NCBI GenBank assembly: GCA_030611385.1
Contig: JAUWPV010000002.1
Span: 15,433 to 79,432 of the forward strand
Origin: Bacillota bacterium
GTDB taxonomy: Bacteria; Bacillota; Dethiobacteria; DTU022
DNA: 64,000 nt
Reading direction: 5' to 3'
The notes beneath the pieces are model-generated. The model searched no databases. It was not told the DNA's origin and saw nothing but the letters and a program-made list of their open reading frames with translations. Below, in pieces: positions 3,187 to 61,945 of this stretch (its first letter is position 1; every line of letters starts with the position of its first letter). The position numbers and the translations under genes were made by a program.

Positions 3187-3948
3187 ATGGAAAAGAATAA
3201 ACTGATTAGCTTTACTGAAGATCTGCGGAAACGTTTAATTATTATTACGGCCACCGTTTTTATTTTCGCGATCGTAAGTTTTGCTTTCAGCGATCAAGTC
3301 AGGCATATCCTATTGCTGCCGGGCGAAATGGCTTATAGCATGTTGGAAACAGAAGGACTTGATTTGCAGTTAATATTTCTAACCCCTTCCGAAGCGCTTC
3401 TGGCCAATCTACGTCTTGCTTTTATCACCAGCGCTACTGTAACCCTGCCCATTATTCTCTACCAGTTGCTTGCCCTGGTCATGACTGCAGTTGGGAGGGC
3501 TAAAAAGACTGTTGTTATATTGACCATGGTTATGTACATTCTGTTTGCTTTGGGTTTATCCTTTGCATACTTTGTGGTACTGCCCTTTGCCCTGAATTTT
3601 TTTATCAGTTTTTCCGGTCCTGACCTTGTTCCGAATTTTAGTATTGCCCGCTACATTTCTTTTACCACCTCGTTTATTTTTTCATTCGGCCTTGTTTTTC
3701 AACTTCCGGTTGTCTTTTGGTTTTTGGGCAGTATAGGATTGGTAAATACGGCATTTTTACGCCGTAACCGTAAATATGCTCTCCTGATTATTGTTATTCT
3801 TGCAGCGATTCTGACTCCCCCTGATGTTTTTTCCCAGGTTTTAATGGTTATGCCACTACTACTTCTATATGAATTGGGTATTTTCATGGTCTACCTGGCT
3901 TCGCGCAAAAAGATCCATTCTGAAATAACTGATGTTTCAGCGGGTTAA
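3187..3948 (+). CDS. tatC: Sec-independent (twin-arginine) protein translocase subunit TatC
   Basis: 253 aa, six predicted TM segments. N-terminal LRKRLI motif and the TatC signature LTPPDVFSQ. Confidence 0.85.
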   Translation: MEKNKLISFTEDLRKRLIIITATVFIFAIVSFAFSDQVRHILLLPGEMAYSMLETEGLDLQLIFLTPSEALLANLRLAFITSATVTLPIILYQLLALVMTAVGRAKKTVVILTMVMYILFALGLSFAYFVVLPFALNFFISFSGPDLVPNFSIARYISFTTSFIFSFGLVFQLPVVFWFLGSIGLVNTAFLRRNRKYALLIIVILAAILTPPDVFSQVLMVMPLLLLYELGIFMVYLASRKKIHSEITDVSAG

Positions 3949-4085: not shown

Positions 4086-5612
4086 ATGAAAATAGCCGGT
4101 GACGGAGAATACCGGGGAGAACAAATAAACGACAAGCCGTATGGTAAGGGTACTGTAACCTGGCTGGACGGGAGTAGATATACCGGTGATTGGAAAGAAG
4201 GTCTCTTTCACGGCGAAGGTGTTTTTACCTGGTCTAACGGTGATAAATATGAGGGGCAATGGAAAGAAGATCGCATGGATGGCCATGGCACCTACCTGTT
4301 CGCTGACTGGCGCAGATATGTTGGAAAATGGCGTGAAGATCAGATCAGCGGATACGGTATTTACTATTGGCCAACTGGAGAAAAATACGAAGGCGAATTT
4401 TTAAACGGCCTCTATGAGGGTCGGGGCAGCTATTCCTGGCCGGACGGTAAATATTATAGCGGTGAGTGGAAGAAATCCTGTCGGTTTGGCCAGGGAGAAA
4501 TGACCTGGCCCGATGGAAGAAACTATACCGGCCAGTGGTATGGTGATCGCAAAGAGGGCCTCGGGACGCAGATCTGGCCGGATGGTAGGAAGTATTATGG
4601 TCAGTGGAAAGATAACCATATGCACGGCAGAGGCGTCTATACTTTTTCTGACGGCTCACGTTATGAAGGTTTCTTTATGAAAGGAAGTTTCAGTAATAGG
4701 GGAAAGTATTTCTTTTTTGATGGATCGATATATAAGGGGAATTTGCTCGAAGGATTGCCACATGGGAAAGGCAGTGTTCTGTTCCCGGATGGAAGAAAAT
4801 ACAGCGGCACATACGAGCATGGCCGCGATGTTGGTCAGGGTATATTTTTTCTCTCTGATGGTTCCAATTACAGCGGTGCGAGTAAGAATAGTTTGCCCCA
4901 CGGCAAGGGCACGCTCTTTTTCCCCGACGGATCGCGTTATTTCGGGACATTCAAAGATGGAGAACCGGCCGATAGTGGTTCTTATTATTTTGTTGATGGT
5001 TCGGTTTTCAGCGGAGACTTGAAGAAGAGTCGGCCTGATGGAAAAGGCAGGACAATCTATAGCAGTGGTATTGAGTATAATGGTGAATTCAAAGACGGAA
5101 AAAGGCACGGTCAGGGTAGCCAGCTCTTTCCTGACGGTGCTGAGTACAGCGGTGAATGGTTTGAAGATCAAATAAATGGCAGTGGTGTTTACCGTTCCTC
5201 TGGAGGAGATTGTTACACAGGAACATTTAAAAACGGTCTCTGGCACGGTGAGGGTTGTCTCGAACAAGCGGATGGTTCAATTTTCCGGGGTATCTGGGAA
5301 AGGGGACGGTTGCACGGGCGCGGCAGTTGTCTATATGTTAGAAGAGGGCAGTATGAAGGTGAGCTGAAAGAGGGTAAATTCCACGGTTGGGGAATTAGAA
5401 CCTGGGATGGTGGTAGCAGTTATTGCGGACGATGGTGGAAGGGTTTTCAGCACGGCTACGGTACTTATATTTCCGTAGTTGGAGATGAATATAAAGGAAA
5501 ATGGTTTTTAAATCGAAGGCATGGTAGCGGAATTCTTAAAAATATGGAAAAAGGAATCAGGAAAGGCATCTGGCTTTTCGGGCTTGGACCGTTCTGGACG
5601 AGAGAATTATAG
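4086..5612 (+). CDS. MORN-repeat protein with about 20 tandem repeats; no signal peptide visible
   Basis: 508 aa built almost entirely of repeating Y-x-G-x-W/F-K-x-G-x-x-H/E-G-x-G units typical of MORN. Confidence 0.7.
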   Translation: MKIAGDGEYRGEQINDKPYGKGTVTWLDGSRYTGDWKEGLFHGEGVFTWSNGDKYEGQWKEDRMDGHGTYLFADWRRYVGKWREDQISGYGIYYWPTGEKYEGEFLNGLYEGRGSYSWPDGKYYSGEWKKSCRFGQGEMTWPDGRNYTGQWYGDRKEGLGTQIWPDGRKYYGQWKDNHMHGRGVYTFSDGSRYEGFFMKGSFSNRGKYFFFDGSIYKGNLLEGLPHGKGSVLFPDGRKYSGTYEHGRDVGQGIFFLSDGSNYSGASKNSLPHGKGTLFFPDGSRYFGTFKDGEPADSGSYYFVDGSVFSGDLKKSRPDGKGRTIYSSGIEYNGEFKDGKRHGQGSQLFPDGAEYSGEWFEDQINGSGVYRSSGGDCYTGTFKNGLWHGEGCLEQADGSIFRGIWERGRLHGRGSCLYVRRGQYEGELKEGKFHGWGIRTWDGGSSYCGRWWKGFQHGYGTYISVVGDEYKGKWFLNRRHGSGILKNMEKGIRKGIWLFGLGPFWTREL

Positions 5613-5622
5613 GCGGAAAGGA

Positions 5623-6120
5623 ATGGTAACTTTGATTGCTGAATCGGAACAAAAGGTTTACAACACTCTGGATCAACTGGATATTTCATATGCCCGTTAC
5701 GAGCATCCGCCGGTTTATACCGTTGATGAAGCTAAACAATACTGGCAGGATATAAAAGGATCCCATGCAAAAAATTTGTTTTTACGCAACAATAAAGGCA
5801 GCCGTCATTACCTGGTTGTTCTGGAAGAAACAAAAACTGCTGACTTAAAGGGTCTTTCCACTCAACTTGATGCGGGTAAATTAAGCTTCGCCTCTGAGCG
5901 GAGATTAATGGAACATTTAGGGCTTGAAGCCGGCTCCGTTTCGCCATTTGGCCTGATCAATGACAGTCAAAAAGCAGTAACAGTGGTAATCGACCGTGAT
6001 CTCTCCAGGAACGGTCTGGTTAATTTCCATCCCAATGTCAACACGGCCACAATTACTGTAACTAATCAGGATTTCGAAAAATTTCTCAAACACTGTGGCA
6101 GCGAAATAATCTATATTTAG
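5623..6120 (+). CDS. proX: YbaK/ProX-type aminoacyl-tRNA trans-editing deacylase (prolyl-tRNA synthetase-associated domain)
   Basis: ATG at 5623 follows GGAAAGGA. The HAKNLFLRNNKG...YLVV motif is typical of the ProX/YbaK family. The ORF-track 5' extension overlaps the MORN gene and is probably not translated. Confidence 0.65.
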   Translation: MVTLIAESEQKVYNTLDQLDISYARYEHPPVYTVDEAKQYWQDIKGSHAKNLFLRNNKGSRHYLVVLEETKTADLKGLSTQLDAGKLSFASERRLMEHLGLEAGSVSPFGLINDSQKAVTVVIDRDLSRNGLVNFHPNVNTATITVTNQDFEKFLKHCGSEIIYI

Positions 6121-6270
6121 CTGCCAAGCAATAAGTTGATTCTGTATGCAATATATAAATAGTATAATATACCCAGCACTTTAAGAGTAGCAGAGCTAAT
6201 GGTTTTAATGAGGCAGGGGTAAATTGCTGCCTGAATATAAATAAGGGAAAAAAGGAAGGAGCATCTATTA

Positions 6271-6903
6271 ATGGCAGATTTTGAAGCTTTAGCAGGAGCA
6301 ATTATTGATTGTAATGCGGTGAGGGCCGGTGAGTTAACCCAAAAACTTGTTGACGAAGGGGTCAAACCTTTAGAGATTATCAGCAAGGGTTTAATTGGTG
6401 GTATGAACATAGTTGGTGATCGTTTCAAGAAAGGCGACATGTATGTGCCTGAGGTGATGATGGCGGCCAAGGCGATGCATGCCGGGATGAACATAGTCAA
6501 GCCTTTGTTATTGGAAGGCGAAACAGCATCGACCGGTAAGGTGATTGTTGGCACCGTTTCCGGGGACCTCCATGATATCGGTAAAAACCTGGTTGGCATG
6601 ATGATGGAAGCGAGCGGCATGGAAGTGGTTGACCTTGGAGTGGACGTAACTCCTGAGAAGTTTGCACAGGCTGTTCGTGAACACAAGCCGCAGGTAGTCG
6701 GTTTAAGCGCACTGCTGACGACCACGATGCTGTCGATGAAAGACACCATTGAGATATTGAAAGAAGAAGGTTTAAGAGATTCAGTCAAGGTGATTATCGG
6801 TGGTGCCCCGGTTACCCAGGATTTCGCTAATGAGATTGGCGCAGATGGATGGGCACCCGATGCAGCATCAGCCAAGGATCTGGCCCGTAAACTGGCCGGG
6901 TAA
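6271..6903 (+). CDS. Cobalamin-binding corrinoid protein of a methyltransferase system (MtbC/MttC/MtgC-like)
   Basis: 210 aa. B12-binding DxHxxG motif (GDLHDIGKN) and a Rossmann-like B12 domain. Size and architecture match methylotrophic corrinoid proteins. Confidence 0.8.
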   Translation: MADFEALAGAIIDCNAVRAGELTQKLVDEGVKPLEIISKGLIGGMNIVGDRFKKGDMYVPEVMMAAKAMHAGMNIVKPLLLEGETASTGKVIVGTVSGDLHDIGKNLVGMMMEASGMEVVDLGVDVTPEKFAQAVREHKPQVVGLSALLTTTMLSMKDTIEILKEEGLRDSVKVIIGGAPVTQDFANEIGADGWAPDAASAKDLARKLAG

Positions 6904-6985
6904 ACAGGGCCGCTAAGGATATCATTGCCAATACATAGTTGAAACTGAACGAGCAGCAAACCTTCTTCAATTGGTGGGATAGAAT

Positions 6986-9001
6986 ATGGCAAACTTGGCC
7001 TTGGGGATCGATACCGGTGGCACATTTACCGACGGAGTTATCTTCGATCTTGATCGAAAAACAGTTGAAGCTAAAACAAAAGTAGAAACTACCAGGCATG
7101 ATTTAACACTTGCCATAAACCGCTGCCTTGATAATCTGATTGTTGCGCTTAAAGAAAAGAAAGGCGATCAGATCGATATCAGACAACTCAAAATGGTTTC
7201 TTTATCGACAACGCTTGCCACCAATGCTATTGTCGAAGGTCAGGGAGCTGCGGTGGGCTTGATACAGATCGGGTTTGAACCCCGTCAGAGCCTGCCTACT
7301 CCTTACTACGCCGTTATTTCCGGCGGCTGTAACATTAAGGGCAGCATTACAGAAGAACTGGATTTATGCGCTGCTGAACAGGTAATTCTGAAAATGAAAG
7401 ATCATGTTGATACATTTGCTGTATCCGCGTACTTAAGTATCCGCAATCCGATCCAGGAAATTCAGATTTCCGAACTGATTCGCAGGCTGACCGGTTACCC
7501 GGTAGTGGCGGCGCATCAGCTCAGCACTGATTTGGGTATGCATGAACGGACAGTTACAGCCGTATTAAATGCCCGTTTGATGCCTTTGATTACTGATCTG
7601 ATAGATTCGGTTAAACAGGGTATGGAGCGCTTAAAAATTGAAGCACCCCTGATGGTAGTTCGTGGAGACGGTAGTTTGATCAGCGAAACGATGGCCCGCG
7701 AGAAGCCAATTGAAACAATATTGTCTGGTCCGGCAGCAAGTATCATCGGTGCCCTTACTTTAACTGGAGTTCAGGAAGGAATCGTTATCGACATGGGCGG
7801 TACTACCACTGATGTTGCCGTTCTTAATGATGGACGACCTTCTATAAGTAAAGAGGGGGCCCGGGTTGGCGGGTGGCTAACCAGGGTTAAAGCAGCCCGG
7901 ATAACCACAATTGGTTTGGGTGGCGATAGTTTAATCCATGTTTCAAAGGGTGCAGCGCTTTCAATCGGACCGCAGAGGGTATTTCCGCTTTCGTGGATTG
8001 TATCTCAATACCCTTATCTGGCCGATGAATTGGCCGCTATAGAGCCGAGTGATTATTCATCTATGGATACGCAGCCGACAATAATACTGACCTATATCAG
8101 AGATCCTCTCAATATCAAGATTACCGGGACAGAGCAGCAGATTATCGATCTGATAAAAGAGGGACCACATACGCTGCACTATATTGGTAATAAATTACAG
8201 AAAGAGATCGATCTTATATCGTGGCAACGATTGGTCAATGTTGCTTCTGTCCACCGTGCTTCACTGACACCGACTGATCTGCTGCATGTAAATGGCAAAT
8301 TAAACCTATGGGATTGTCGGGCGGCTGAATTGGGGACAGCTATGCTGGCCAGTCGCTATAAGGTATCCGTAATGGAGTTTGTGGATACCGTGATGGAAGA
8401 GATTCAGTTTAAACTGGCGGCGATTACTATTGACCGCCTGTTAGCTGAAGAAGGGGCTAAGTTTTCCCTGGTTGATGAAGAGGGCAGTTCCTACATCCTG
8501 AGAAAGATCTTGAACAAGCATAATGAAGGTAATACACAGCAGATTTCATTAATGGCAAGGTTAAAGCATCCAATAGTAGCTGTTGGCGCTCCGGTTGGAG
8601 CATATTTTCCTGATTTGGCTAAAAAGCTACAGGCAAAATTGTATCTTCCTCAAGATGCAGATGTCGCCAATGCGGTGGGTACAGTGAGCGGTAAAGCGGT
8701 TGAAAGAGTGACGATTCTTGTTAAACCGGGTGAAGGTGGTGGATTTCTGGTTCATACTCCGCGCCAGAGAGAATATTTTACGAATTTTGATGAAGCAATT
8801 GAATATGCCTGTAAGGAAGGCCAGCGATATGTTTACGAGCAGGCTGTTAATGCGGGTGCCTCAGACATAGAAACATTGGTCGAGCGGAAAGATCATTACA
8901 GCAAGCTCGCTTCCATGGTCGCTAGTGATCAATTTGAAAATAAACTATTTATTGAAAGCACAATCGAAGTATCTGCCGTAGGCAGGCCGTGGACTGATTG
9001 A
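6986..9001 (+). CDS. Hydantoinase A/oxoprolinase-like ASKHA-fold ATPase (HyuA-like, no HyuB partner)
   Basis: 671 aa. N-terminal GIDTGGTFTD motif of the Hydant_A_N family. Positioned between the corrinoid protein and the methyl-THF methyltransferase. Confidence 0.55.
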   Translation: MANLALGIDTGGTFTDGVIFDLDRKTVEAKTKVETTRHDLTLAINRCLDNLIVALKEKKGDQIDIRQLKMVSLSTTLATNAIVEGQGAAVGLIQIGFEPRQSLPTPYYAVISGGCNIKGSITEELDLCAAEQVILKMKDHVDTFAVSAYLSIRNPIQEIQISELIRRLTGYPVVAAHQLSTDLGMHERTVTAVLNARLMPLITDLIDSVKQGMERLKIEAPLMVVRGDGSLISETMAREKPIETILSGPAASIIGALTLTGVQEGIVIDMGGTTTDVAVLNDGRPSISKEGARVGGWLTRVKAARITTIGLGGDSLIHVSKGAALSIGPQRVFPLSWIVSQYPYLADELAAIEPSDYSSMDTQPTIILTYIRDPLNIKITGTEQQIIDLIKEGPHTLHYIGNKLQKEIDLISWQRLVNVASVHRASLTPTDLLHVNGKLNLWDCRAAELGTAMLASRYKVSVMEFVDTVMEEIQFKLAAITIDRLLAEEGAKFSLVDEEGSSYILRKILNKHNEGNTQQISLMARLKHPIVAVGAPVGAYFPDLAKKLQAKLYLPQDADVANAVGTVSGKAVERVTILVKPGEGGGFLVHTPRQREYFTNFDEAIEYACKEGQRYVYEQAVNAGASDIETLVERKDHYSKLASMVASDQFENKLFIESTIEVSAVGRPWTD

Positions 9002-9055
9002 TAATAAATTGAGGAGGTCTAGTTACCGGTTTGTTCAAATCCGGTAAGCATAATT

Positions 9056-9850
9056 ATGATTATCATTGGTGAATTGATTAACTCAACCCGTAAGGCGATT
9101 AAAAGGGCCATCGATGAACAGGATGTTGCATTTATTCAGGACTTGGCTGTTAAGCAGGAAGAAGCAGGCGCCGATTATATCGATGTTAATGCCGGGGCTT
9201 ATGTCCATGAAGAAGGGAAGCATTTAATTTGGCTGGTGGAAACCGTTCAGGCAGTGGTTAGCAAACCCCTGACGCTCGATAGTCCTGATCCTAAAGCTTT
9301 GGAAGCGGCGATGAAAGTGCATAAGGGAGTGCCGATGATCAATTCGATCAGCGCCGAGAAAGAACGCTATAATCAAGTTATGCCCCTGGTGAAAGAGTCA
9401 GGAGCCCAGGTTATTGCTCTTTGTATGAGCGATGATGGTATGCCCGAAACTGCCGATGAACGCCTGGAAGTAGCCAAGCGGCTGCTCAGCGATCTTGATA
9501 AAGATGGCATCGATCTGACCAATGTATTCCTTGACCCGCTGATTAAGCCGGTCAGCGTTAACGGAGAATACGGTCCGCAGGCGCTTGATGCTATTGAAAG
9601 AATTGCCGTTCTTGGCTCCGGGGCCCATATAACCAGCGGCTTGAGCAATATTTCCTTTGGATTACCGCATCGCGCCCTGTTGAACCAGGCTTTTATAGTT
9701 CTGGCGATGGGTCGGGGAATGGATTCAGCCATAGTTGACCCTCTTGATAAAAAGAAAATGAGTTTAGTCAAAGCCGTCGAGGTTATCTTAAATCTTGATC
9801 CTTATGCGATGAATTATCTAAAAGCCTCGCGGGCTGGCCGGTTAATTTAA
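9056..9850 (+). CDS. Methyltetrahydrofolate:corrinoid methyltransferase (pterin-binding, MtrH/AcsE/MtgA-like)
   Basis: 264 aa. TIM-barrel pterin-binding domain with DVNAG, VPMINSIS and GLSNISFG motifs shared with MtrH/AcsE/MetH pterin domains. Confidence 0.75.
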   Translation: MIIIGELINSTRKAIKRAIDEQDVAFIQDLAVKQEEAGADYIDVNAGAYVHEEGKHLIWLVETVQAVVSKPLTLDSPDPKALEAAMKVHKGVPMINSISAEKERYNQVMPLVKESGAQVIALCMSDDGMPETADERLEVAKRLLSDLDKDGIDLTNVFLDPLIKPVSVNGEYGPQALDAIERIAVLGSGAHITSGLSNISFGLPHRALLNQAFIVLAMGRGMDSAIVDPLDKKKMSLVKAVEVILNLDPYAMNYLKASRAGRLI

Positions 9851-10059
9851 TTAATCTGTAGTCCTAAACCAATAAAAATACTTTCCCTTTCTTGCATAGA
9901 TGGCGGTTGACTGATTTTTAAAACAGATGGCCGCTTTTTATAATAGTGAGGATTTCTCTAATTGTATAAATATACATTTATCGTACAGTTATAAAGATAA
10001 TGACGTAATTTGTGGCAATGCACTAAAGGATATCAGTGTCCTAAGTATAATACTATCTA

Positions 10060-10185
10060 TAATCGTTTATAGTCGTTGCTACTGTTTTAACGATCACTAA
10101 TAGCATCTATCTTGATGCTGTTTGACATTCATAGATTGCTATTGCTATAATTTTCTCAGGATAAAGTCGTTTAGAACTAACGATT
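10060..10185 (+). promoter_or_regulatory. Cluster of TCGTT/AACGA inverted-repeat half-sites flanking and following the promoter of the tandem-cyclase gene; candidate repressor operator
   Basis: TCGTT at 10063, 10073 and 10167; AACGA at 10089 and 10179. TCGTTTAGAACTAACGA forms a near-palindrome between the -10 element and the RBS. Confidence 0.3.
10122..10151 (+). promoter_or_regulatory. Sigma-70/SigA-type promoter (TTGACA, 18-nt spacer, TATAAT) for the tandem-cyclase gene
   Basis: Consensus hexamers read directly; 70 nt upstream of the ATG at 10222. Confidence 0.55.
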
Positions 10186-10221
10186 TTACAAGATTCAATA
10201 AACTATTAACTGGAGGTTGCC

Positions 10222-11886
10222 ATGAGTAAAAACATGATTGAGCTGCTCAGTAAGTCGAAGTGGTACGATCTGACCCAGCCTCTGAGCATCTTTACTCCAC
10301 CCGTGCCCGGTGAAATGCCGCTGCAGGTTCATTTTTTTAAGCGGGTTACCGGTTCATTTCACGGCGGGCAGGGTGCGAACGGTCAGCTGATTGAGTGGTC
10401 AAACAATACCGGCACCCACTTGGTCGGACCGACCGCTTTCCATTCCGGAATGCGTGCAATTGCCGACATCCCACTCGAAGATATTTGCGGCGAAGGTGTT
10501 ATTGTCGATATCTCCGACGAAGTTTCCGATTACAGCCTCTACACGCCCGAAATGATCGAAAAGCGAGTCAAAGTTAAAGAGGGAGATATCCTCATTATAA
10601 ATACCGGCTATCACCGCTTTGGTTACGATCAGCCGGATTCACCGAACCCACAAGCTCAGGGTGGTGTCGACAATAAAGAGTTTTCTTATATGGTCCGTCA
10701 TCCGGGTCCAGCGCCGGGATTCTTTGAATGGGCTCTGAAAAAGAAGTTGAAAGTAGTTAGTGTTGACTGCGGCTGCGCCGAGCACCCGATGAATACCAAT
10801 ATCCGCTACATGCACAGTCGTGATTTTCAGAAAGCGGAAGCGAAACTGAAAAAAACTCACGGCAAGACCTGGGATGAAATGTTTCCTCCCGATGAATATT
10901 ATAAACTGACCCACATCACCATACCGAAAGCTGGTCTGCTTCTGGCAGAATCGCTGGGCGGCCAAATCAAAGAACTGAATAATCAGCGTGCCTGGATCAT
11001 TATCGGGGCGATCCCCTTCTGCGAGGTCGAATCGGCCTGGTCGCGGGTTGCTGCCCTGCAGGCCCCTGACGGTATGAGCGAAGATGATTTTTTTGCAGCA
11101 ATGAATGGTAATAAAATGTATGACCTCTCAATTCCATTCAGTGTACAGACTCCACAGTGGGCCAACTATATACCGCTTATCCTGCAGTATACAAAACGGG
11201 TCGGTGGTCAGTATTTCGGTCTTGGACGTAATAACGCACATTGCAAAGCCAGCTTCCATCTGAGCACACACATGGACGGCGAAACACACTTCTACTCTTC
11301 CGGACGCACCATTGGACAAACCCCGCTTGATTTCTGGGTTGGCCCGGGGGCGATTGCCGATATTTCCGAATTAGTAAGTGATTCCAGTGTGTATAGCCCA
11401 GAAATGATCGAATCTGTTGTCGAGATAAAAGAGGGCGATATCCTGCTGATCAAGACCGGTTATTCCAGCTACGGTTGGTGCAGTCCTGATTCGGATGAAT
11501 TTAGATATATGATTAAGCATCCTGGTCCTTCACCGGACTTTGCAGAATGGTGCCTGAAGAAGAAAATTAAATGGATAGGTGTTGACTGTGTGGCGATGGA
11601 GCACCCGATGAATACAATTCAGCGCATCTTCCATCCGATGACTTTTGATGAGGCTAATCAGAAGCTGATCGAGAAATACGGTAAAGACTGGGATGAGATG
11701 TATCCACTGGACCAATACTATCAGGATATGCACCTCAATCTTTTCCCGCACGGCATAGTCCACGCTGAGAACCTCGGTAAAGACTTTGCTCAACTTGCCG
11801 CCGGACGCTATTACATCGGCTGTTTCCTCCAGAAAGGTATGGAGCTTGCTTCCTGCTGGGCCCGCTTTATTGCCTGGAAGGAGTAA
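10222..11886 (+). CDS. Tandem-duplicated 'putative cyclase' (kynurenine formamidase/isatin hydrolase-like) metallohydrolase-fold protein
   Basis: 554 aa with two homologous halves (YTPEMIEKRVKVKEGDILIINTGY and YSPEMIESVVEIKEGDILLIKTGY). The second half carries a HxSTHMDGETH metal motif; the first half reads NTGTHLVGPTAFH, with the Asp replaced. Confidence 0.6.
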   Translation: MSKNMIELLSKSKWYDLTQPLSIFTPPVPGEMPLQVHFFKRVTGSFHGGQGANGQLIEWSNNTGTHLVGPTAFHSGMRAIADIPLEDICGEGVIVDISDEVSDYSLYTPEMIEKRVKVKEGDILIINTGYHRFGYDQPDSPNPQAQGGVDNKEFSYMVRHPGPAPGFFEWALKKKLKVVSVDCGCAEHPMNTNIRYMHSRDFQKAEAKLKKTHGKTWDEMFPPDEYYKLTHITIPKAGLLLAESLGGQIKELNNQRAWIIIGAIPFCEVESAWSRVAALQAPDGMSEDDFFAAMNGNKMYDLSIPFSVQTPQWANYIPLILQYTKRVGGQYFGLGRNNAHCKASFHLSTHMDGETHFYSSGRTIGQTPLDFWVGPGAIADISELVSDSSVYSPEMIESVVEIKEGDILLIKTGYSSYGWCSPDSDEFRYMIKHPGPSPDFAEWCLKKKIKWIGVDCVAMEHPMNTIQRIFHPMTFDEANQKLIEKYGKDWDEMYPLDQYYQDMHLNLFPHGIVHAENLGKDFAQLAAGRYYIGCFLQKGMELASCWARFIAWKE

Positions 11887-11924
11887 GCTGTAAGCCTGGA
11901 AGCATCATTCCCGATAGCATTATG

Positions 11925-11961
11925 AGCGGCCTACCGGTTTTTCTTTTCACCGGTGGCCGCT
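11925..11961 (+). terminator. Nested hairpin: AGCGGCC...GGCCGCT enclosing ACCGGT-tttttctttc-ACCGGT; terminator-like structure after the cyclase gene
   Basis: Inverted repeats read directly. The downstream T-run is weak. Confidence 0.4.
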
Positions 11962-12053
11962 TCTCTATGATCCGGGTAAGCGGATTGGCTTGTTTTTGAA
12001 TTCAGATATTGATAAAATAGGTTTCGTAAAGTATTTTATATGTTTAGTTATAT

Positions 12054-12147
12054 GGGAGTAGTTAGCGGCCTGGTGGCGCTCCTGGACTTCAAATCCTGTG
12101 GCAGGGCATCCCCCTGCGGTGGGTTCGATTCCCATCTACTCCCGCCA
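12054..12147 (+). tRNA. selC: tRNA-Sec (selenocysteine tRNA, anticodon UCA)
   Basis: 94 nt. 8-bp acceptor stem GGGAGTAG/CTACTCCC, 5-bp T-stem with a TTCGATT loop, anticodon loop CU-UCA-AA, 6-bp long variable arm GCAGGG/CCCTGC, discriminator G and CCA end. Confidence 0.8.
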
Positions 12148-12161
12148 TCAGTCTTTAAAAG

Positions 12162-12196
12162 GGCGAGAAGGGAGATTTCCCCCTTCTCGCCTCATG
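12162..12196 (+). terminator. Hairpin GGCGAGAAGGG-agatttcc-CCCTTCTCGCC downstream of tRNA-Sec
   Basis: 11-bp perfect stem read directly. The trailing U-tract is weak (TCATGTTTG). Confidence 0.45.
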
Positions 12197-12245
12197 TTTG
12201 CTTAATCAGCGCCGATGCTTAATTCTACAACCGGACGTGACAAAA

Positions 12246-13661
12246 ATGTTCAAAATTAGAAAGAAAGATTTAGTGAATCCATTACTGGTCAGCGGTGAAA
12301 GCAATTTCAGGCCGGTGTTCAGCATACTCATTTTGGCCTGGCCGGTAGTGATCGAAATGGGGCTGCATACCTTTGTCTGGGTTTTTGACATGGCTATGGT
12401 CATGCGGCTTGGTGCACATGAGGCGACTGCAGTTGAATTCGGAGCTATATTACTCTTTAATTCGTTGATGATCCTCGGTGCGCTTGGCATCGGGGCGAAT
12501 GCCCTGGTTGCCCGCTACACCGGCGCAAAAGATATGAAAAGGGCTGCTTCAACCGGCGGACAGGCTTTGTCGATTAGCCTGGTTATTACTGCTGTTTTTA
12601 CTTTGATCAGTATCCTGCTTTACAGGCCATTTTTCAGCTGGGTTCTTAAGGATACTATTACAGTTGCTCTGACGGAAGACTATTTCTATTATGCACTGGT
12701 CAGCGGTGGTTTTGCTCTACTACCGCTGTTGGTGGCCAACGGGATTATCCGCGGTACCGGTAATACCCGTATGCCGATGGTTATCGCTTTAATCGCCAAC
12801 GCTTATAACGTTATTGGTGATTACCTGTTAATATTCGGTAATTATGGTTTCCCCGCCTTGGGGGTAAAAGGGGCAGCTTTGGCTACTGGTTCGGCTCAGT
12901 TGATTGCCTTGGTTCTTTCAGTCGGCTACCTTTTTTTGCATAAGGAGAATCTGCCGTTTTCTTTTAAATTGCTCTTTCCATTTCGTAAAGAGATAGTTAA
13001 GGAGGTTTTAAAACTCAGTGTTCCTGCCGGCGCTGAAGAACTGACCCACAATGGTAGCAGAATGTTATCAGCAAGCTGGATTACAGTTCTCGGGCCGGTT
13101 GCTTTTGCCGCTAATGGGGCAGCTATTGCCGCCGAAGCAATTTCATTTATGCCGGGACTTGCATTTGGTATTACCGCTACCACTCTGACCGGGCAATATC
13201 TGGGAGCCGGTTTTATCAGACAAGCCCGTGGTGCCGGTTATTGGGCAGTTGCCCTGGGTACAATTCTGATGAGTTCTATCGGCTTGCTGTTTTTCTTTTT
13301 CCCATATTTGATCATGAGCCTTTTTGATCCGCCGGATCCTGAAGTGCTGCACCTTGGCGTGATCTGTCTGCAAATAGCAGCTGTAGAGCAGCCTTTCATT
13401 GCGATAACAATGATTTTTTCGGGAGCGCTTAAAGGGCTGGGCGACACAAGAAGCCCCTTTAAAGTTGGCCTTTACAGCAACCTTTTTGTGCGGCTCCCTT
13501 TGATCTATGCCGTTGTTTTTGTTTTTAAGCTTGAAGTGTACTACATCTGGTGGGTGACGGCAATTCAATACGCTGTAAGCGCTCTGCTTTTATTCATCAT
13601 GTATAAGAAGAAAGACTGGGTCAGGCTGGAATCAATTTCAACGACTGGAAATCCGGATTAA
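12246..13661 (+). CDS. MATE-family multidrug/Na+ efflux transporter
   Basis: 12 predicted TM helices. NorM/MATE-like glycine-rich helices and overall length. I took the start as the ATG at 12246, internal to the ORF-track call. Confidence 0.7.
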   Translation: MFKIRKKDLVNPLLVSGESNFRPVFSILILAWPVVIEMGLHTFVWVFDMAMVMRLGAHEATAVEFGAILLFNSLMILGALGIGANALVARYTGAKDMKRAASTGGQALSISLVITAVFTLISILLYRPFFSWVLKDTITVALTEDYFYYALVSGGFALLPLLVANGIIRGTGNTRMPMVIALIANAYNVIGDYLLIFGNYGFPALGVKGAALATGSAQLIALVLSVGYLFLHKENLPFSFKLLFPFRKEIVKEVLKLSVPAGAEELTHNGSRMLSASWITVLGPVAFAANGAAIAAEAISFMPGLAFGITATTLTGQYLGAGFIRQARGAGYWAVALGTILMSSIGLLFFFFPYLIMSLFDPPDPEVLHLGVICLQIAAVEQPFIAITMIFSGALKGLGDTRSPFKVGLYSNLFVRLPLIYAVVFVFKLEVYYIWWVTAIQYAVSALLLFIMYKKKDWVRLESISTTGNPD

Positions 13662-24368: not shown

Positions 24369-25499
24369 TTACTTCAGCATCTCTATAAATGCCTGCAATC
24401 TGGTCTGAATTGCTCCGGCCGGTTCAAAGCTGTAATTATCGTCGATAAGCAGCATCGGAAAACCTTCTTTTTTCAGGTAATCCCGCAGGTCGGGATAATC
24501 AAACTTATGCGGGTCACAGAAAGAGATACTGTAACCGACTACACCATCGACCCTGTATTCACGGGCTCTCTGAAGCAGATAATCAAAGCGTTTTATGCCG
24601 GGCCCGCGGTCGGTACGGGGGCATTGAAAAGTGACAAAATAATGTTCAGTCAGTCCGTCGCGGGTGTCTTCAGTTAGCGGCACATCTTTTTCCCAAACCC
24701 GAAAACCGATGCATGTATCGTCGGCAACGACTTTACCACCCGCTTCCTCAATCATCCGATAGAGGGCCGGGTCGTCCATAATGCTGCCCCAGACCAATAT
24801 ACGGGGCGCCTTCGGCCCATCTGGTTTACGCTTTATTACGTCGTTAGTAGTTTTTTCGAGTAAAACTGTGAAATCTTCAGCAGGAAGAGTTCCTCCGGCA
24901 ATCAGCAGGTTTAGCATTTCACTGCCCTCAATAAGCGGCAGGGATTCTTTGCGTAGTTCGTATAGTTTGCGAACCAGAAAGCGGTTGTGGTTATATTTGA
25001 CAATTATATTTTTTAATTCCGGTATGGTTACTTGATGTCCGGTAAACTTTTCCAGGCTTTCCTGAAAAAAGCCCAATTCACGTTTGTAAAACCGCTGAGC
25101 CCATGGGCTGATCTGGTGTGGAACATTAAATAGATAGGAATAGGGAAGAGGGTGGCTGTAAGTCCAGATTCCGTAGAGACGCTGAACCATGTCGCAGCTG
25201 TGAGAGATGATCAAACCATCCAGAAAATCCAGCTTACCATCAACAGCGCGGGCGAGAATGTTGCGCACATATGTGCAACCGTACGGTTCAACATAGGCAT
25301 CTGCGGCCGATGTATCCATTCCGGGTTGTCCGGTGATCCTGTAGGGAATGGCGCCGGCGGCGCTGATTATCTCCGGCGGGGCAAAACAGCACAAATAGCC
25401 GATTACCGGTTTGCCGGTTTCTGCTTTAATCCGGCGGACATTTTGTTCATTTTCTTCTGCAGCCTTGTTCAACAAACCTGTATTATTTCTGACGGTCAT
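24369..25499 (-). CDS. 2-Hydroxyacyl-CoA dehydratase / benzoyl-CoA reductase BcrC/BadD/HgdB-family subunit
   Basis: Start at MTVRNNTGLL, overlapping the upstream partner by 17 nt. Conserved Cys residues and family-wide similarity. Confidence 0.6.
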   Translation of the reverse strand: MTVRNNTGLLNKAAEENEQNVRRIKAETGKPVIGYLCCFAPPEIISAAGAIPYRITGQPGMDTSAADAYVEPYGCTYVRNILARAVDGKLDFLDGLIISHSCDMVQRLYGIWTYSHPLPYSYLFNVPHQISPWAQRFYKRELGFFQESLEKFTGHQVTIPELKNIIVKYNHNRFLVRKLYELRKESLPLIEGSEMLNLLIAGGTLPAEDFTVLLEKTTNDVIKRKPDGPKAPRILVWGSIMDDPALYRMIEEAGGKVVADDTCIGFRVWEKDVPLTEDTRDGLTEHYFVTFQCPRTDRGPGIKRFDYLLQRAREYRVDGVVGYSISFCDPHKFDYPDLRDYLKKEGFPMLLIDDNYSFEPAGAIQTRLQAFIEMLK

Positions 25500-26838
25500 T
25501 GATATTTCCCCCTCTGCCCGTTTTGTCCATCGTTTCCAGAAATGCATGCAGTCTGGTCTTGATTTGGGCATCCGACCAGAGGCGGGGATCAGCCATATCA
25601 CTTTCGAAGATTAGAGAGGGCACGCCAATTTTTCCCAATCTGTTCTTGGTATGGACTTCGCCGAATGAAACAGCACGGCAGGAACGGGTCAGGTGCATTA
25701 CGGCGCCAGTCAGGCTATATTCTCCGACCAGTTCTTCAAGCAGGTTGCTGCCTGAAAAACCGCCAAACACGGCTGGATTGCAGAGTTCAGGCATTGTTTC
25801 GGCGCCGTATTCGTGCATTTTTACCGCTCTTTGCCAGGTGCGTCTGACGATTGCTTCCAGGGGATCGCTCAAATCAACCTCAAAGTAGTCACCGACATTA
25901 TATGTTGATTCATAGGCAAAGACAGCACCCAGGGATTCCAGGTAATTAAAGATACCCATGTTAAACCAGGGAGGCAGTCCGAACCAGATCAGGCGATATT
26001 TTTCCTCTTCGACGATACCAACCCCACGCTCAACCCGATCTTTAACTTCTTCGTAAATTTCCCGGTAAAAATCGACAGCTTCCTGGTCCCCGACCAGGTA
26101 CATCTGAGGGATAATGGCGTGGAAATAATCGGTTGAACCCATCGGTGTTGGCACTGCTTTACGTAAAGCCAGGGTATCCCGCCAGTAAGCCAGGGCTTCA
26201 TGAGAGAGGGCCATTATTTCCCGCAGCCGATTCAGGTCAAGTTTTTTGCCGGTATGCTTTTCAATAAAAGAGATCTGTCCGGCCAGGTCTTCACGCAGTA
26301 AAGTAAGGTAATGGTTTTCAATATGTGGATCATGCGGGTCAATATCCCATGGCGGAGCCAATGGATCGCTGCTATATACGGGTACGTCAAAGAAACGGGT
26401 AGCGATGGACTGAAACCATTTCCAACGCGGATCACAGATAAAACCTGAGCCGAGCAGCATTGCCGGTGTACCCATGCCGCCGGGCAGTGGCGATTCCGGC
26501 GGCGCCTCCCCGGTTTCTTTGAAAAGTTTACAGTAACCCATCGTATTGGTTACATACGAACAGAGTTCCGGCGAATAACCATCGCCTTCGGCAACCTCGA
26601 TAAAACGAGGGGCAACCAGTCGGCTGGCGCACATCGTACCGAAGTTTTCCGGCCATTCAAAAAGCAGATCAAAAGCTTTCAATAGTTCCGGTGGCACACC
26701 GACCATACACCAGGCCAGGGGCTCATTGCTGAATCTTCTTTCCATCATGCGCATAAAAAAGCGGGGCAGCATTTCTTTCATTCGGCTGGTTGTCTCCAGA
26801 TGACGTTTCGCCCGGCTCATTTCACTATGTGACATCAC
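25483..26838 (-). CDS. 2-Hydroxyacyl-CoA dehydratase HgdA/HadB-family subunit
   Basis: 451 aa. Dehydratase alpha-type motifs (CDPRWKWF, conserved Cys). Paired with the adjacent subunit; no activator ATPase gene nearby. Confidence 0.6.
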   Translation of the reverse strand: MMSHSEMSRAKRHLETTSRMKEMLPRFFMRMMERRFSNEPLAWCMVGVPPELLKAFDLLFEWPENFGTMCASRLVAPRFIEVAEGDGYSPELCSYVTNTMGYCKLFKETGEAPPESPLPGGMGTPAMLLGSGFICDPRWKWFQSIATRFFDVPVYSSDPLAPPWDIDPHDPHIENHYLTLLREDLAGQISFIEKHTGKKLDLNRLREIMALSHEALAYWRDTLALRKAVPTPMGSTDYFHAIIPQMYLVGDQEAVDFYREIYEEVKDRVERGVGIVEEEKYRLIWFGLPPWFNMGIFNYLESLGAVFAYESTYNVGDYFEVDLSDPLEAIVRRTWQRAVKMHEYGAETMPELCNPAVFGGFSGSNLLEELVGEYSLTGAVMHLTRSCRAVSFGEVHTKNRLGKIGVPSLIFESDMADPRLWSDAQIKTRLHAFLETMDKTGRGGNINDRQK

Positions 26839-35750: not shown

Positions 35751-35861
35751 CTTACAGTAAAATTCAGTAAAACCCCGAAGGTTGATTTTTATTTTAGGTC
35801 AGGTTAAAATAGGACCATTGAGGTGCACATAACTGTGCACAGGGCAACAGGAGGCCTGACC

Positions 35862-58617: not shown

Positions 58618-58855
58618 TGTTGTGTACATGCCTGCTACCGTAGGGTACAATAAGGTGGAATATTATAACTGCTCAGACTGAGCAGGCGGAAGGGCTCTAC
58701 GATCATTTTTGCCAAAGCCAGCACAGCTGCGGTATACTATTGGCTACAGGCCGCTTCCAGGTAAATATGCGCATTATTGTCGACAATGATGGCCCGGTTA
58801 CAATGATACTCGACAGCAAAAAGCAATTTTAAGAGAATTGGAGAGGAAAACGAAG

Positions 58856-61800: not shown

Positions 61801-61945
61801 TGAATCGATCCGACAGGTCATTCCCTTTCCCAAAACGGCTGCGGCCAACTGCCTGATGACCGGCGCCCCGGCTTTTGTAGAGACCAGCCAACTGGATGAA
61901 CTAAAAATTCAACTGCAACCGCAGGAAGAGGAAGAAGTAAAGTAA
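58856..61945 (+). CDS. hisS-aspS: Single in-frame ORF encoding histidyl-tRNA synthetase (residues ~1-415) joined by a ~28-aa Pro/Glu/Lys/Ser linker to aspartyl-tRNA synthetase (~586 aa): an apparent HisRS-AspRS fusion
   Basis: ATG at 58856, 9 nt after GGAGAGG. HisRS motifs up to ...RVTLRDMESGDQQELTREAVFELLIKD. There is no stop codon and no ATG/GTG/TTG start before the AspRS N-terminus (SHYCGLLNLSDV..., GWVGRRRDHGGLIFIDLRDRSG). Confidence 0.7.
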   Translation: MNYKAPRGTRDILPDESMKWQHLEERFRDFCNLYGFGEIRTPIFEQTDLFIRSVGEESDIVSKEMYSFKDRSGRELTLRPELTAAVARAYLEHNLNEQPQPIKLYYSGPMFRYDRPQAGRYRQFHQFGLEIFGAANAVADAEIIAFCYHFFKSLQIENLSIELNSVGCPACRPQFRDILVPYLENIEKGLCSDCIKRYKHNPMRVLDCKQESCQIQVETAPRMSDHLCPDCDRHFIALKELLTRLQIPYNLSSRLVRGLDYYTRTAFEVVAGDLGAQASLCGGGRYDHLVEHCGGPHTPGVGVAFGVERIILSMDWSKQMPEPRSSVYLATAGENLEGESLLLASELRQRNIAVDTELMERSLKAQMKYAGKHNCKYVVIIGEDEIASGRVTLRDMESGDQQELTREAVFELLIKDEPVSKEEPASPTGAEVILPSKGKPTQKSHYCGLLNLSDVNNTVKLAGWVGRRRDHGGLIFIDLRDRSGMMQLVFDQKLGVELFNQSESLRNEYVVAVEGKVVKRSADNINPSLPTGEIEVRVANMEILNSSKTPPFYIEDNLNVDENLRLRYRYLDLRRPEMLNRLMLRHRAVKLVRDYMDRFDFLEVETPMLTRSTPEGARDFLVPSRPHPGFFYALPQSPQLFKQLLMVSGLERYFQIVRCFRDEDLRADRQPEFTQVDIETSFFGSENLFALIEGLMELLWKEIHGVELELPFLRMPYKEAMERFGSDKPDLRFAMELVDIGELAAKSAFRVFTTALENGGVVKGLRIPGGSRFSRKELDDLTLLARQLGAKGLAWTYIEDSGWRSPIVKYFDPVLLDQISAKMQAEPGDVLLFVADRRETTCQVLGSLRRHLAPENISDEPNFLWVVDFPLFHFNEAEQRCDSDHHPFTAPRVEDMPLLESDPLAVRAQAYDLVLNGVELGGGSTRIHDSETQAKIFKLLGLSEEESREKFGFLLEALSFGAPPHGGIALGLDRLVALLTGDESIRQVIPFPKTAAANCLMTGAPAFVETSQLDELKIQLQPQEEEEVK

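Follow-up and report, generated by a model that had tools for sequence, protein, structure and literature searches.

In anoxic sediments, in guts and in the ocean, corrinoid methyltransferase systems turn over betaine, methylamines, methanol and methoxy-aromatic compounds and supply methanogenesis. The components generally recognised are a substrate methyltransferase (MTI), a corrinoid protein, a methylcorrinoid:tetrahydrofolate methyltransferase (MTII) and a RACo/RamA-type activase. In addition, a conserved HyuA-like ATPase is encoded in or beside such systems in Firmicutes, Chloroflexi, Deltaproteobacteria, alphaproteobacteria and methylotrophic methanogens. Described examples are the MtgBCA clusters with a 'HydA' gene in 'Ca. 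Formimonas warabiya' DCMF (Ga0180325_114734-114742), 'Ca. Frackibacter' and Sporomusa ovata (PMC9768040). The betaine-induced cluster of 'Ca. Formimonas warabiya' has the order MtgC-MtgB-MtgC-MtgB-'?'-MtgA-MtgB, in which '?' denotes a 668-aa HyuA-like homologue that is itself betaine-induced (LFC -7.2) and was entered as "Unknown", so that the occurrence of HyuA-like genes in betaine methyltransferase clusters is already on record, without a function (PMC9768040). MttB-type systems of E. limosum have been fully reconstituted in vitro with MTI, corrinoid protein, MTII, RamQ, ATP and Ti(III) (PMC12155760), and the HyuA-like factor is therefore unneeded for core catalysis.

The 64-kb stretch of DNA analyzed here (the window) contains a compact version of such a cluster, made up of three intact open reading frames on the forward strand. 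The first (6271-6903) encodes a 210-aa MtgC-like corrinoid (cobamide-binding) protein with B12-binding_2 and B12-binding domains (Pfam) and a DxHxxG motif in the form GDLHDIGK. It reaches 222 bits on the NCBIfam model pyl_corrinoid (cut-off 215), with MtgC models as its top matches. The second (6986-9001) encodes a 671-aa HyuA-like ASKHA ATPase, matching Hydant_A_N and the first half of Hydantoinase_A. The third (9056-9850) encodes a 264-aa MtgA/MtqA-like MTII with a Pterin_bind domain, scoring 336 bits on PRK07535 (methyl-THF:corrinoid methyltransferase; cut-off 259). The order of corrinoid protein (210 aa), HyuA-like protein (~668-671 aa) and MtgA-like MTII (264-265 aa) is the same as in the MtgBCA clusters. 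Unlike these, the window has neither an MttB gene nor a second corrinoid gene, and it lacks both the BCCT transporter and the sigma54 activator. Thus, of the constituents of an MtgBCA/MtqBCA-type system, the locus retains a cognate corrinoid protein and a pterin-binding MTII and shares its descent, as judged by orthology and synteny, whereas an MttB-superfamily MTI is missing from the 64 kb, apart from a 42-nt relic. These results bear out the sequence-only reading in that both the corrinoid protein and the methyl-THF:corrinoid methyltransferase are present and that a substrate methyltransferase of the MttB, MtaB or URO-D type is absent nearby. Pfam scans of all ORFs of at least 120 aa in the 64 kb returned no MttB, MtaB, URO-D, DUF1638, BCCT or Hydantoinase_B match, the absence of MtaB and Hydantoinase_B being based on these scans alone. 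Home-built HMMs run on all ORFs of at least 40 aa in the 64 kb likewise gave no MttB, URO-D, BCCT or DUF1638 hit, and for MttB there was neither a tblastn match to an intact gene nor a PF06253 match in the 64 kb.

Comparison with relatives explains this composition. Intact clusters were found in relatives at 82, 80, 78, 72, 60 and 56% identity, with the gene order tRNA_edit, sigma54 activator, BCCT, corrinoid protein, MttB, corrinoid protein, MttB, HyuA-like, MtgA and MttB, mostly followed by a cyclase gene. The closest of them thus combine BCCT transporters with a CoP-MttB-CoP-MttB-HyuA-MtgA-MttB layout identical to that of the MtgBCA clusters. The flanking and internal genes of the window are 82-91% identical to those of one such relative, L009, in conserved order and with defined junctions. 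The corrinoid protein shares 90% identity with each of the two L009 corrinoid proteins and the MTII 91% with its L009 counterpart. The left anchor of the locus is a YbaK/tRNA_edit-domain gene (5521-6120, forward strand; Pfam tRNA_edit; 85% amino acid identity to the L009 homologue), which is kept in all close relatives and, in L005, L009 and L094, lies ahead of the sigma54 activator. It is followed by the left deletion junction, which consists of ~130 nt of unrelated AT-rich sequence (6120-6249; alignment A5). Here, window positions 6119 and 6250 correspond to L009 positions 1734 and 5620 (blastn), so that L009 segment 1735-5619 is absent, and with it the genes for the sigma54 activator and the BCCT betaine transporter as well as a sigma54-type promoter. 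The sigma54-type site of L009 (TGGCATGAATATTGCT, at 3731-3746) lies upstream of BCCT, and no comparable site is found in window 6120-6270. Downstream of the corrinoid gene, window positions 6912 and 6915 correspond to L009 8480 and 9931 (blastn). This junction retains the last ~14 codons (42 nt) of an MttB-superfamily gene (6915-6956, forward strand), which are interrupted by an in-frame TAG and align with the 3' ends of the L009, L005 and L013 MttB genes (DNA alignment A4); consistently, amino acids 467-484 of MttB2 map to window 6900-6953 in tblastn searches. At the right junction (9835-10111), 277 nt replace the third MttB gene (L009 12935-14663), with window positions 9834 and 10112 corresponding to L009 12934 and 14664 (blastn); no MttB remnant was detected at 9835-10111 by tblastn or home-built HMMs. 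An assembly artefact can be dismissed as the source of this layout, because an independent ENA contig from another sample (L012) has the identical reduced order, with 97.1% identity over 7.6 kb. The trio is thus a reduced derivative of a corrinoid methyltransferase operon of the glycine-betaine type (non-pyrrolysine MttB superfamily). At least three deletions removed the activator together with the sigma54 promoter, the transporter, one of the two corrinoid genes and every MttB gene, leaving the corrinoid protein, the HyuA-like protein and MTII. Three observations support betaine as the ancestral type of substrate: the L009 MttB paralogues stay under the cut-off of the trimethylamine equivalog, the transporter matches the betaine BCCT model with 625 bits, and the betaine-induced cluster of 'Ca. 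Formimonas warabiya' shows the corresponding architecture.

This history changes how the ATPase is to be seen. It had been read as standing in place of a substrate methyltransferase, but intact relatives carry the ATPase in addition to their MttB genes, and it is the latter that were deleted in the window. The adjacent tandem cyclase had been put forward as a candidate for an unrecognised substrate methyltransferase used by the module, a proposal that now appears highly improbable. This 554-aa protein (10222-11886, forward strand) comprises two Pfam Cyclase domains (PF04199, kynurenine-formamidase-type hydrolases). The argument in its favor is positional, given that the gene lies downstream of the module in the same orientation and that this adjacency is conserved in the closest relatives. 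However, in L005, L009, L013, L093 and L094 the cyclase gene comes after the third MttB gene, and hence after clusters that already hold three such genes, and it is missing from the clusters at 56-60% identity. Moreover, it is preceded by a perfect sigma70-type promoter of its own (10122-10151, forward strand; TTGACA-18-TATAAT with a TG extension, 12/12 matches), in a region conserved with L009 from 10112 onward. [quoted passage not shown] On these sequence features, we regard the cyclase as a separately transcribed neighbor outside the methyl-transfer module.

The extent of the losses raises the question of whether the trio is a decaying remnant, functionless and heading to pseudogenization now that its transporter, regulator, promoter and substrate methyltransferases are gone. 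In line with such a scenario, BCCT and all three MttB genes have disappeared along with the sigma54 promoter and its activator, and upstream of 6271 no strong promoter is predicted and no convincing replacement promoter for the trio was found. In addition, codon 35 of MtgA is a stop codon (E35*) in the sister contig L012, which is 97% identical, and the dN/dS of MtgA may be 2-3 times above the long-term value (~0.11 versus 0.04). However, all three window ORFs are intact, and E35* comes down to one base of one metagenome contig and could reflect an error or a strain-specific loss. Importantly, whereas neutral decay predicts a dN/dS of ~1, the divergence accumulated after the deletions is strongly biased toward synonymous changes. 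Relative to L012, dN/dS is 0.016 for the corrinoid protein (17 synonymous, 1 nonsynonymous), 0.129 for the HyuA-like protein (21 synonymous, 9 nonsynonymous) and ~0.11 for MTII (13 synonymous, 5 missense), compared with long-term values of 0.02-0.10 for the three genes. The trio is thus still under purifying selection after the deletions, and we consider its decay unlikely. This persisting constraint suggests that it most likely serves as a methyl relay, which would transfer methyl groups between methyl-corrinoid and THF in a substrate-independent manner for methyltransferases encoded elsewhere.

The HyuA-like protein belongs to a large family, of which 1131 cluster representatives were recovered at E<1e-30 and which occupies at least 561 genome loci. 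Its fold is HyuA-class throughout, over ~500 residues, and its ASKHA ATP motifs are invariant across the family. Of the 291 positions of the Hydantoinase_A profile, it matches only 1-145, and residues 331-671 gave zero Pfam matches even at E 0.1. Compared with the enzymes of the HyuA superfamily, the C-terminal 340 residues are family-specific, and the genomic context is corrinoid methyl transfer instead of lactam or ketone metabolism. Unlike HyuA, OplA, acetone carboxylase beta and caprolactamase alpha, it also stands without a HyuB-type partner, both in the window and in the relative loci checked: Hydantoinase_B is absent from 13 Pfam-annotated relative loci and is not among the top families of 150 neighbors at 46 other HyuA-like loci. 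An adjacent HyuB had been named as the sign of a true 5-oxoprolinase; there is none in the window, and the top NCBIfam match, caprolactamase alpha, reaches 113 bits where the cut-off is 1000. The protein is therefore neither a hydantoinase nor an oxoprolinase but a member of a large, partner-less HyuA-like ASKHA family, and HyuA-like genes in this setting should not carry N-methylhydantoinase or oxoprolinase names.

B12-enzyme reactivases (DdrA/GdrA and EutA) and RACo/RamA are ASKHA-fold ATPases as well. Like RACo, RamA and RamQ, the HyuA-like protein is an ASKHA ATPase encoded with or near corrinoid methyltransferase genes, and the ATP-driven servicing of a corrinoid protein that we propose for it would be analogous to theirs. 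Unlike them, it has no Fe-S domain or cysteine motif: there is no Fer2, Fer4 or RACo_C_ter/DUF4445 match in Pfam, and the broad family alignment contains no invariant cysteine. In the absence of an Fe-S motif, it cannot itself deliver electrons. As recognised from the sequence alone, it is thus not of the RACo/RamA type, and a true RACo/RamQ-type reductive activase is encoded separately at 30916-32754 on the reverse strand, unlinked to the trio. The latter contains a [2Fe-2S] ferredoxin domain (Fer2), RACo_linker, Raco_middle and RACo_C_ter as well as an ASKHA domain, and it scores 770 bits on a home-built HMM.

The genomic contexts of the family show co-occurrence with corrinoid systems in other organisms, both bacteria and methanogens. 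In every intact relative examined, the HyuA-like gene has an MttB gene on one side and the MtgA-like gene on the other. Across the family, it adjoins MttB systems (L013-L018, L027, L028, L071, L083, L090), URO-D systems (L031, L033, L035, L091) or, in Methanosarcina, MtaC-MtaB (L038, a locus equivalent to MA4395/MA4396; PMC11619418). About 46 of 80 HyuA-like genome loci, mostly from Proteobacteria, have no corrinoid gene within 10 kb. The common element of the contexts is the corrinoid protein and no particular substrate. A second recurrent partner is DUF1638 (PF07796), which is fused N-terminally to the HyuA-like protein in many homologues of ~930-960 aa and is encoded by the next gene after it in L015, L017, L025, L095 and L097. 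DUF1638 is needed for split B12 methionine synthase and co-occurs with a RamA-like activase (PMC5764234), and it is induced by methylated amines (PMC12478193). It shares its functional neighborhood, split methionine synthase and MtgBCD systems, with the HyuA-like protein. Unlike the latter, its ~215 residues form a separate alpha/beta protein, in which Cys, His and Asp residues are invariant and for which there is no solved homologue. The window has the HyuA-like gene but no DUF1638 gene. The extra requirements of the split MetH of P. inhibens are RamA-like and DUF1638 genes only, with no hydantoinase-like gene (Price et al., PMC5764234). In R. pomeroyi, SPO3739, HyuA-like by annotation only ('hydantoinase/oxoprolinase family protein'), increases by 3.5-4.8 log2 on carnitine, choline and betaine, and MtgC, RamA and DUF1638 rise alongside it.

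These contexts also bear on whether the HyuA-like protein acts on the substrate side, as a kinase or activating enzyme that would use ATP to prepare the methyl donor or recycle it, and not as a factor for the corrinoid protein. HyuA-class enzymes do phosphorylate small carbonyl or lactam substrates with ATP (structures 5svb, 6yra, 5l9w), the choline kinase MthK provides a kinase precedent in an MttB-type pathway, acting for the MttB-family protein MthB (PMC12155760), and the gene is both located in betaine clusters and induced by betaine. However, we judge such a role improbable, as the protein accompanies three unrelated methyltransferase classes (MttB, MtaB and URO-D-type), has no HyuB partner to complete HyuA chemistry, is fused or adjacent to a DUF1638 protein tied to methionine synthase and not to a methyl-donor substrate, and in the window is under purifying selection after the loss of the transporter and all MttB genes. 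The window thus represents a natural experiment, in which the ATPase, the corrinoid protein and MTII have remained under selection after all substrate-specific parts were lost, which argues that the ATPase serves the corrinoid side.

Taken together, we favor, with some confidence, the reading that the locus is a reduced betaine operon whose trio acts as a methyl-corrinoid:THF relay and whose HyuA-like ATPase services the corrinoid protein. The ATPase is probably an ATP-dependent maintenance factor of corrinoid proteins, a role we infer from its contexts, fusions and conservation. It would bind and hydrolyze ATP either to help inactive Co(II) or damaged cofactor back into the active cycle or to load or exchange the corrinoid cofactor. 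In many lineages it may work with DUF1638, and it would act alongside, not instead of, a RACo/RamQ-type activase. The earlier suggestion of an alternative activase or chaperone therefore pointed in the direction that the evidence favors, and whereas the data directly show the deletion history, the synteny, the fusions, the fold and the selection, the biochemical role itself stays at the level of inference. More tentatively, the partner-less HyuA-like family, including the gene studied here, Formimonas Ga0180325_114738, Methanosarcina MA4395/MA4396 and the roseobacter and rhizobial homologues, might be a widespread and hitherto unrecognised maintenance component of corrinoid proteins and a second ATP-dependent system beside RACo/RamA, which would preserve cofactor loading and activity of methyltransferase corrinoid proteins, with the MTI-less trio as a shared relay. 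DUF1638, often its partner, could then hold a metal or an Fe-S cluster in its invariant Cys3-His-Asp site. The co-induction of HyuA-like genes with corrinoid systems and their fusion to the equally unexplained DUF1638 point to a missing maintenance function that is directly testable.

Several findings count against the favored reading. For the relay, these are the loss of the trio's native promoter and activator and the E35* codon in the MtgA gene of L012; for the maintenance role, they are the in vitro reconstitution of E. limosum systems from other components, the differing requirements of split MetH in P. inhibens, the HyuA-like loci with no corrinoid gene within 10 kb and the lack of an Fe-S motif. 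With respect to the GlmL/MutL-type accessory proteins of B12 mutases, the HyuA-like protein also matches MutL (PF13941) with 29.3 bits (cut-off 27), over residues 6-66 only and with no stretch passing alone, and scores 27 bits on GlmL (NF040745) against a cut-off of 475. Judged from these profile scores, its similarity to MutL and GlmL probably reflects no more than a common ASKHA phosphate-1 motif.

The corrinoid module comprises three intact, co-oriented genes on the plus strand. The first (6271-6903) encodes a 210-aa corrinoid protein with B12-binding_2 and B12-binding domains, in which the DxHxxG motif takes the form GDLHDIG; it scores 222 bits against the NCBIfam model pyl_corrinoid (cut-off 215), and the MtgC models are its best matches. 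It is followed by the gene for the 671-aa HyuA-like ATPase (6986-9001), whose Hydant_A_N domain is accompanied by a Hydantoinase_A match covering profile positions 1-145 of 291; residues 331-671 gave no Pfam match, even at an E-value of 0.1. The third gene (9056-9850) encodes a 264-aa methyl-THF:corrinoid methyltransferase (MTII) with a Pterin_bind domain and a PRK07535 score of 336 bits (cut-off 259). A tRNA_edit (YbaK-like) gene precedes the trio (5521-6120, plus strand), and a gene for a 554-aa protein with tandem PF04199 cyclase domains lies downstream (10222-11886, plus strand). As the sequence-only reading had proposed, no substrate:corrinoid methyltransferase accompanies the module. Pfam scans of all ORFs of at least 120 aa in the 64-kb window revealed no MttB, MtaB, URO-D, BCCT, DUF1638 or Hydantoinase_B gene, the result for MtaB and Hydantoinase_B being that of the Pfam scans only. 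Profile HMMs for MttB, URO-D, BCCT and DUF1638, built from the relatives, identified no such gene among window ORFs of at least 40 aa, and tblastn searches with MttB, BCCT and sigma54-activator queries returned a single remnant, an MttB 3' relic at 6900-6956. The separate position of the RACo-type activase gene was likewise borne out: it is complete (30916-32754, minus strand), including the Fer2, RACo linker, middle and C-terminal domains.

Deletion accounts for the lack of a substrate methyltransferase. The ATPase has many collinear homologues, whose genomic surroundings we inspected at 82% (P0003), 80% (P0004), 78% (P0016), 72% (P0078), 60% (P0099) and 56% (P0117) identity. Where contigs are long enough, the closest relatives show the order tRNA_edit, sigma54 enhancer-binding protein, BCCT transporter, corrinoid protein, MttB, corrinoid protein, MttB, HyuA-like ATPase, Pterin_bind MTII, MttB and cyclase (554 aa). 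The closest match among GTDB genomes, a Syntrophomonadaceae MAG (72%), retains MttB, HyuA-like ATPase, MTII, MttB and cyclase, and the relatives at 56-60% identity keep the core of corrinoid protein, MttB, HyuA-like ATPase and MTII and have no cyclase, P0117 also being devoid of the third MttB. The HyuA-like ATPase is thus a regular member of betaine-type operons, and its presence together with MttB genes in intact relatives contradicts the earlier suggestion that it stands in for a substrate methyltransferase. Alignment by blastn of window positions 5401-12300 with the intact cluster L009 yielded three clean junctions. At 6119|6250 (L009 1734|5620), the activator and BCCT genes are missing; at 6912|6915 (L009 8480, or 6282, and 9931), two MttB genes and one duplicated corrinoid gene; and at 9834|10112 (L009 12934|14664), the third MttB gene. 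Window positions 6915-6956 align with the final 14 codons of the MttB genes in the intact clusters L009, L005 and L013 (window, AAGGATATCATTGCCAATACATAGTTGAAACTGAAC; L009, AAGGATATCATTGCCAATGCAGAATCAAAACTGAAC) and now contain an in-frame TAG; this coding relic shows loss in the window rather than gain in the relatives. We also considered a misassembly in which the duplicated corrinoid genes had collapsed into one. It was rejected, because all junctions recur in the independent ENA contig L012 and two of the deletions do not fall between repeats. L012 shares the reduced gene order and 97.1% identity over 7.6 kb in one alignment, and in the Logan contig L008 the corrinoid and HyuA-like genes are likewise 82 nt apart, so the reduced layout is real and older than the strain split. 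Our results thus show that deletions within a betaine-type operon gave rise to this locus. In L009, the MttB paralogues fall below the trimethylamine (pyrrolysine) equivalog cut-off and the transporter reaches 625 bits with the model for glycine betaine BCCT transporters, which identifies the ancestral operon as one of the betaine or quaternary-amine type. A near-consensus sigma54 promoter (TGGCATGAATATTGCT) is located between the activator and BCCT genes of L009, within a segment deleted in the window; a search upstream of 6271 revealed no sigma54 promoter, GGCAGGGGTAAATTGC being wrongly spaced, and a sigma70 scan upstream of the corrinoid gene produced nothing convincing.

Since the window and L012 have the deletions in common, the differences between them arose later and report on selection after the loss. 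Direct codon comparison of the two, with dN/dS by NG86, gave 17 synonymous and 1 nonsynonymous changes for the corrinoid protein (dN/dS 0.016), 21 and 9 for the HyuA-like ATPase (0.129) and 39 and 10 for the cyclase (0.067); comparisons between intact lineages (L009/L005 and window/L009) gave 0.02-0.06, 0.10 and 0.045-0.05, respectively. These low values since the shared deletions demonstrate continued purifying selection on the corrinoid protein and the ATPase, and the latter is still constrained after the loss of all substrate-specific genes. MTII shows 13 synonymous, 5 missense and 1 nonsense changes, corresponding to a dN/dS of about 0.11 by direct codon counts, as compared with 0.04 between intact lineages; it may be somewhat relaxed. 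The numbers of changes in this comparison are small. The nonsense change, GAA to TAA at codon 35 of the L012 gene (3720-4514, the counterpart of window 9056-9850), may reflect strain-specific pseudogenisation of MTII following the loss of MttB, the stop codon being a single base in one metagenome assembly. That the whole trio is a functionless remnant appears unlikely to us; the most economical reading is that corrinoid protein, HyuA-like ATPase and MTII remain functional, presumably in concert with substrate methyltransferases whose genes lie elsewhere. Along window 6271-11886, dS relative to L012 is uneven (0.128 for the corrinoid gene, 0.045 for the HyuA-like gene and 0.132 for the cyclase gene), suggesting recombination between strains.

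The tandem cyclase had been put forward as a positional candidate for the missing methyltransferase. Such a hidden activity is highly improbable, given that the gene has its own consensus promoter at 10122-10151, also adjoins clusters already holding three MttB genes and encodes a member of a hydrolase family. The promoter is a perfect extended sigma70 element; the metal motif H..TH.D...H (HLSTHMDGETH) is found only in the C-terminal half of the protein, the N-terminal half being degenerate (NTGTHLVGPTAFH), and the gene adjoins the betaine cluster in the closest clade only.

The ATPase belongs to a large family, with 1131 representatives of 50% identity clusters at E<1e-30; species-representative genomes contain at least 561 loci. 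Across an alignment of homologues with 33-80% identity, the ASKHA phosphate motifs D9xGGTxTD and D269xGGTTxD, the stretch G312-G313-D314-S315 and the family-specific T428-P429-x-D431 are invariant, and no cysteine is. HyuA-class enzymes pair with a HyuB-type partner. No such partner was detected in the window or in 13 Pfam-annotated relative loci, nor was it among the commonest families of 150 neighbours at 46 further loci. The product of 6986-9001 is an ATPase of the HyuA fold that retains its nucleotide motifs and lacks a HyuB partner.

Its genomic contexts point to the corrinoid protein as their common element. HyuA-like genes occur in MttB clusters of Firmicutes, Halanaerobiales, Anaerolineae and Deltaproteobacteria (L013-L018, L027, L028, L071, L083, L090), beside corrinoid and URO-D-type pairs (L031, L033, L035, L091) and, in Methanosarcina (L038), as tandem paralogues between MtaC-MtaB (upstream) and an Msr-type regulator (downstream); in four loci (L025, L033, L058, L083), a RACo gene adjoins the HyuA-like gene. 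Tandem pairs are present in several methylotrophic methanogens (L038 7832-11920; L024, L059, L078, L084, L088), the first paralogue covering nearly the whole Hydantoinase_A profile and the second only its first half. The L038 arrangement corresponds to MA4395/MA4396 beside mtaCB2 (PMC11619418), and a frameshift in MA4396 appeared in laboratory evolution of M. acetivorans (bioRxiv 10.1101/2025.05.05.652248). At about 46 of 80 loci, mainly from Proteobacteria, there was no corrinoid gene within 10 kb; the proteobacterial neighbours were heterogeneous in the Pfam scan of 150 neighbours, and annotation by single-seed phmmer and iterated HMMs added little. In roseobacters, queG (epoxyqueuosine reductase) immediately precedes the HyuA-like gene and has the same orientation (L096 6893-10004 of Roseobacter denitrificans and four similar loci, which, as close relatives, represent a single lineage). 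QueG, too, is a cobalamin enzyme.

A second recurrent associate is DUF1638 (PF07796), which has no gene in the window. It forms the N-terminal domain of many HyuA-like homologues of about 930-960 aa (nine genome loci), is encoded by the very next gene in L015 and L017 (Halanaerobiaceae) and L025, overlaps the HyuA-like stop codon in the MttB cluster L095 and completes the order EutH, HyuA-like ATPase, DUF1638 at a second Formimonas locus (L097). The HyuA-like ATPase is thus associated with DUF1638 as well as with the corrinoid proteins from three classes of methyltransferase. Phaeobacter inhibens needs DUF1638 for its split B12-dependent methionine synthase; in its occurrence, DUF1638 tracks the RamA-like activase, no role having been assigned to it (PMC5764234). 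In Ruegeria pomeroyi, it is induced on methylated amines (PMC12478193), and SPO3739, a 'Hydantoinase/oxoprolinase family protein' absent from the main-text discussion, rises by 3.5-4.8 log2 units on carnitine, choline and betaine, ranking alongside MtgC, RamA and DUF1638 (PMC12478193 Dataset S1); R. pomeroyi is not among the 120 matches listed for the family, which makes SPO3739 a candidate member only. DUF1638 alignments contain three conserved cysteines, one histidine and one aspartate, each just after a beta-strand of a Rossmann-like sheet, a placement that would fit a putative metal or cluster site; a search for a solved structure of a relative found none.

ASKHA ATPases with maintenance functions include RACo/RamA and the reactivases DdrA/GdrA and EutA. 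We propose that the HyuA-like ATPase similarly uses ATP to service the corrinoid protein, perhaps by helping to bring Co(II) or damaged cofactor back into the cycle or by promoting cobamide loading and exchange. It would work together with the product of the RACo gene at 30916-32754, which has the electron-transfer domain that is missing from the HyuA-like protein. A function as a substrate-side kinase in the manner of MthK seems considerably less probable than such a servicing role, and we regard it as doubtful. The protein is an uncharacterised accessory that has already been noticed in passing. Its Formimonas homologue Ga0180325_114738 (668 aa), encoded between MtgB and MtgA and listed as 'Unknown', was 2^7.2-fold more abundant on betaine, and the homologue in the syntenic clusters of Frackibacter and Sporomusa was drawn as 'HydA' (Holland et al., PMC9768040); our literature search found no functional study. 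MttB-type systems of E. limosum were reconstituted with substrate methyltransferase, corrinoid protein, MTII, the RACo-type RamQ, ATP and Ti(III) (PMC12155760), and the omission of a HyuA-like protein from this mixture shows that it cannot be essential for core catalysis. What the present analysis adds is the reconstruction of the deletions, evidence for the persistence of the corrinoid-side trio under selection, the spread of the family over different methyltransferase classes and its repeated fusion to, or proximity with, DUF1638. In itself, the locus represents a variant of a known system, yet it points to a gap, amenable to testing, in the known component list of corrinoid methyltransferase systems.

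Several other features of the window deserve mention. A single 1035-aa ORF (58838-61945, plus strand) contains a complete HisRS (tRNA-synt_His and anticodon domain) and a complete AspRS (OB, class II core and GAD domains) joined by a stop-free linker (…KDEPVSKEEPASPTGAEVILPSKGKPTQKSHYCGLL…). This is either a genuine hisS-aspS fusion or the product of stop-codon loss or a sequencing error. An unusual fusion of 886 aa (35823-38483, plus strand) combines a class-III aminotransferase with a C-terminal region of weak similarity to Shikimate_DH and THF-dehydrogenase NAD(P)-binding domains. A pair of adjacent HGD-D (2-hydroxyacyl-CoA dehydratase D-component-like) genes adjoins an aspartate kinase gene (24369-26838, minus strand); a gene for a BcrAD/BadFG-type activator ATPase was not seen in the ORFs around them. 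Immediately upstream of the tRNA_edit gene, a 508-aa protein consisting almost entirely of MORN repeats (at least nine) is encoded at 4086-5612 (plus strand), its C-terminal end overlapping the listed start of the tRNA_edit ORF.
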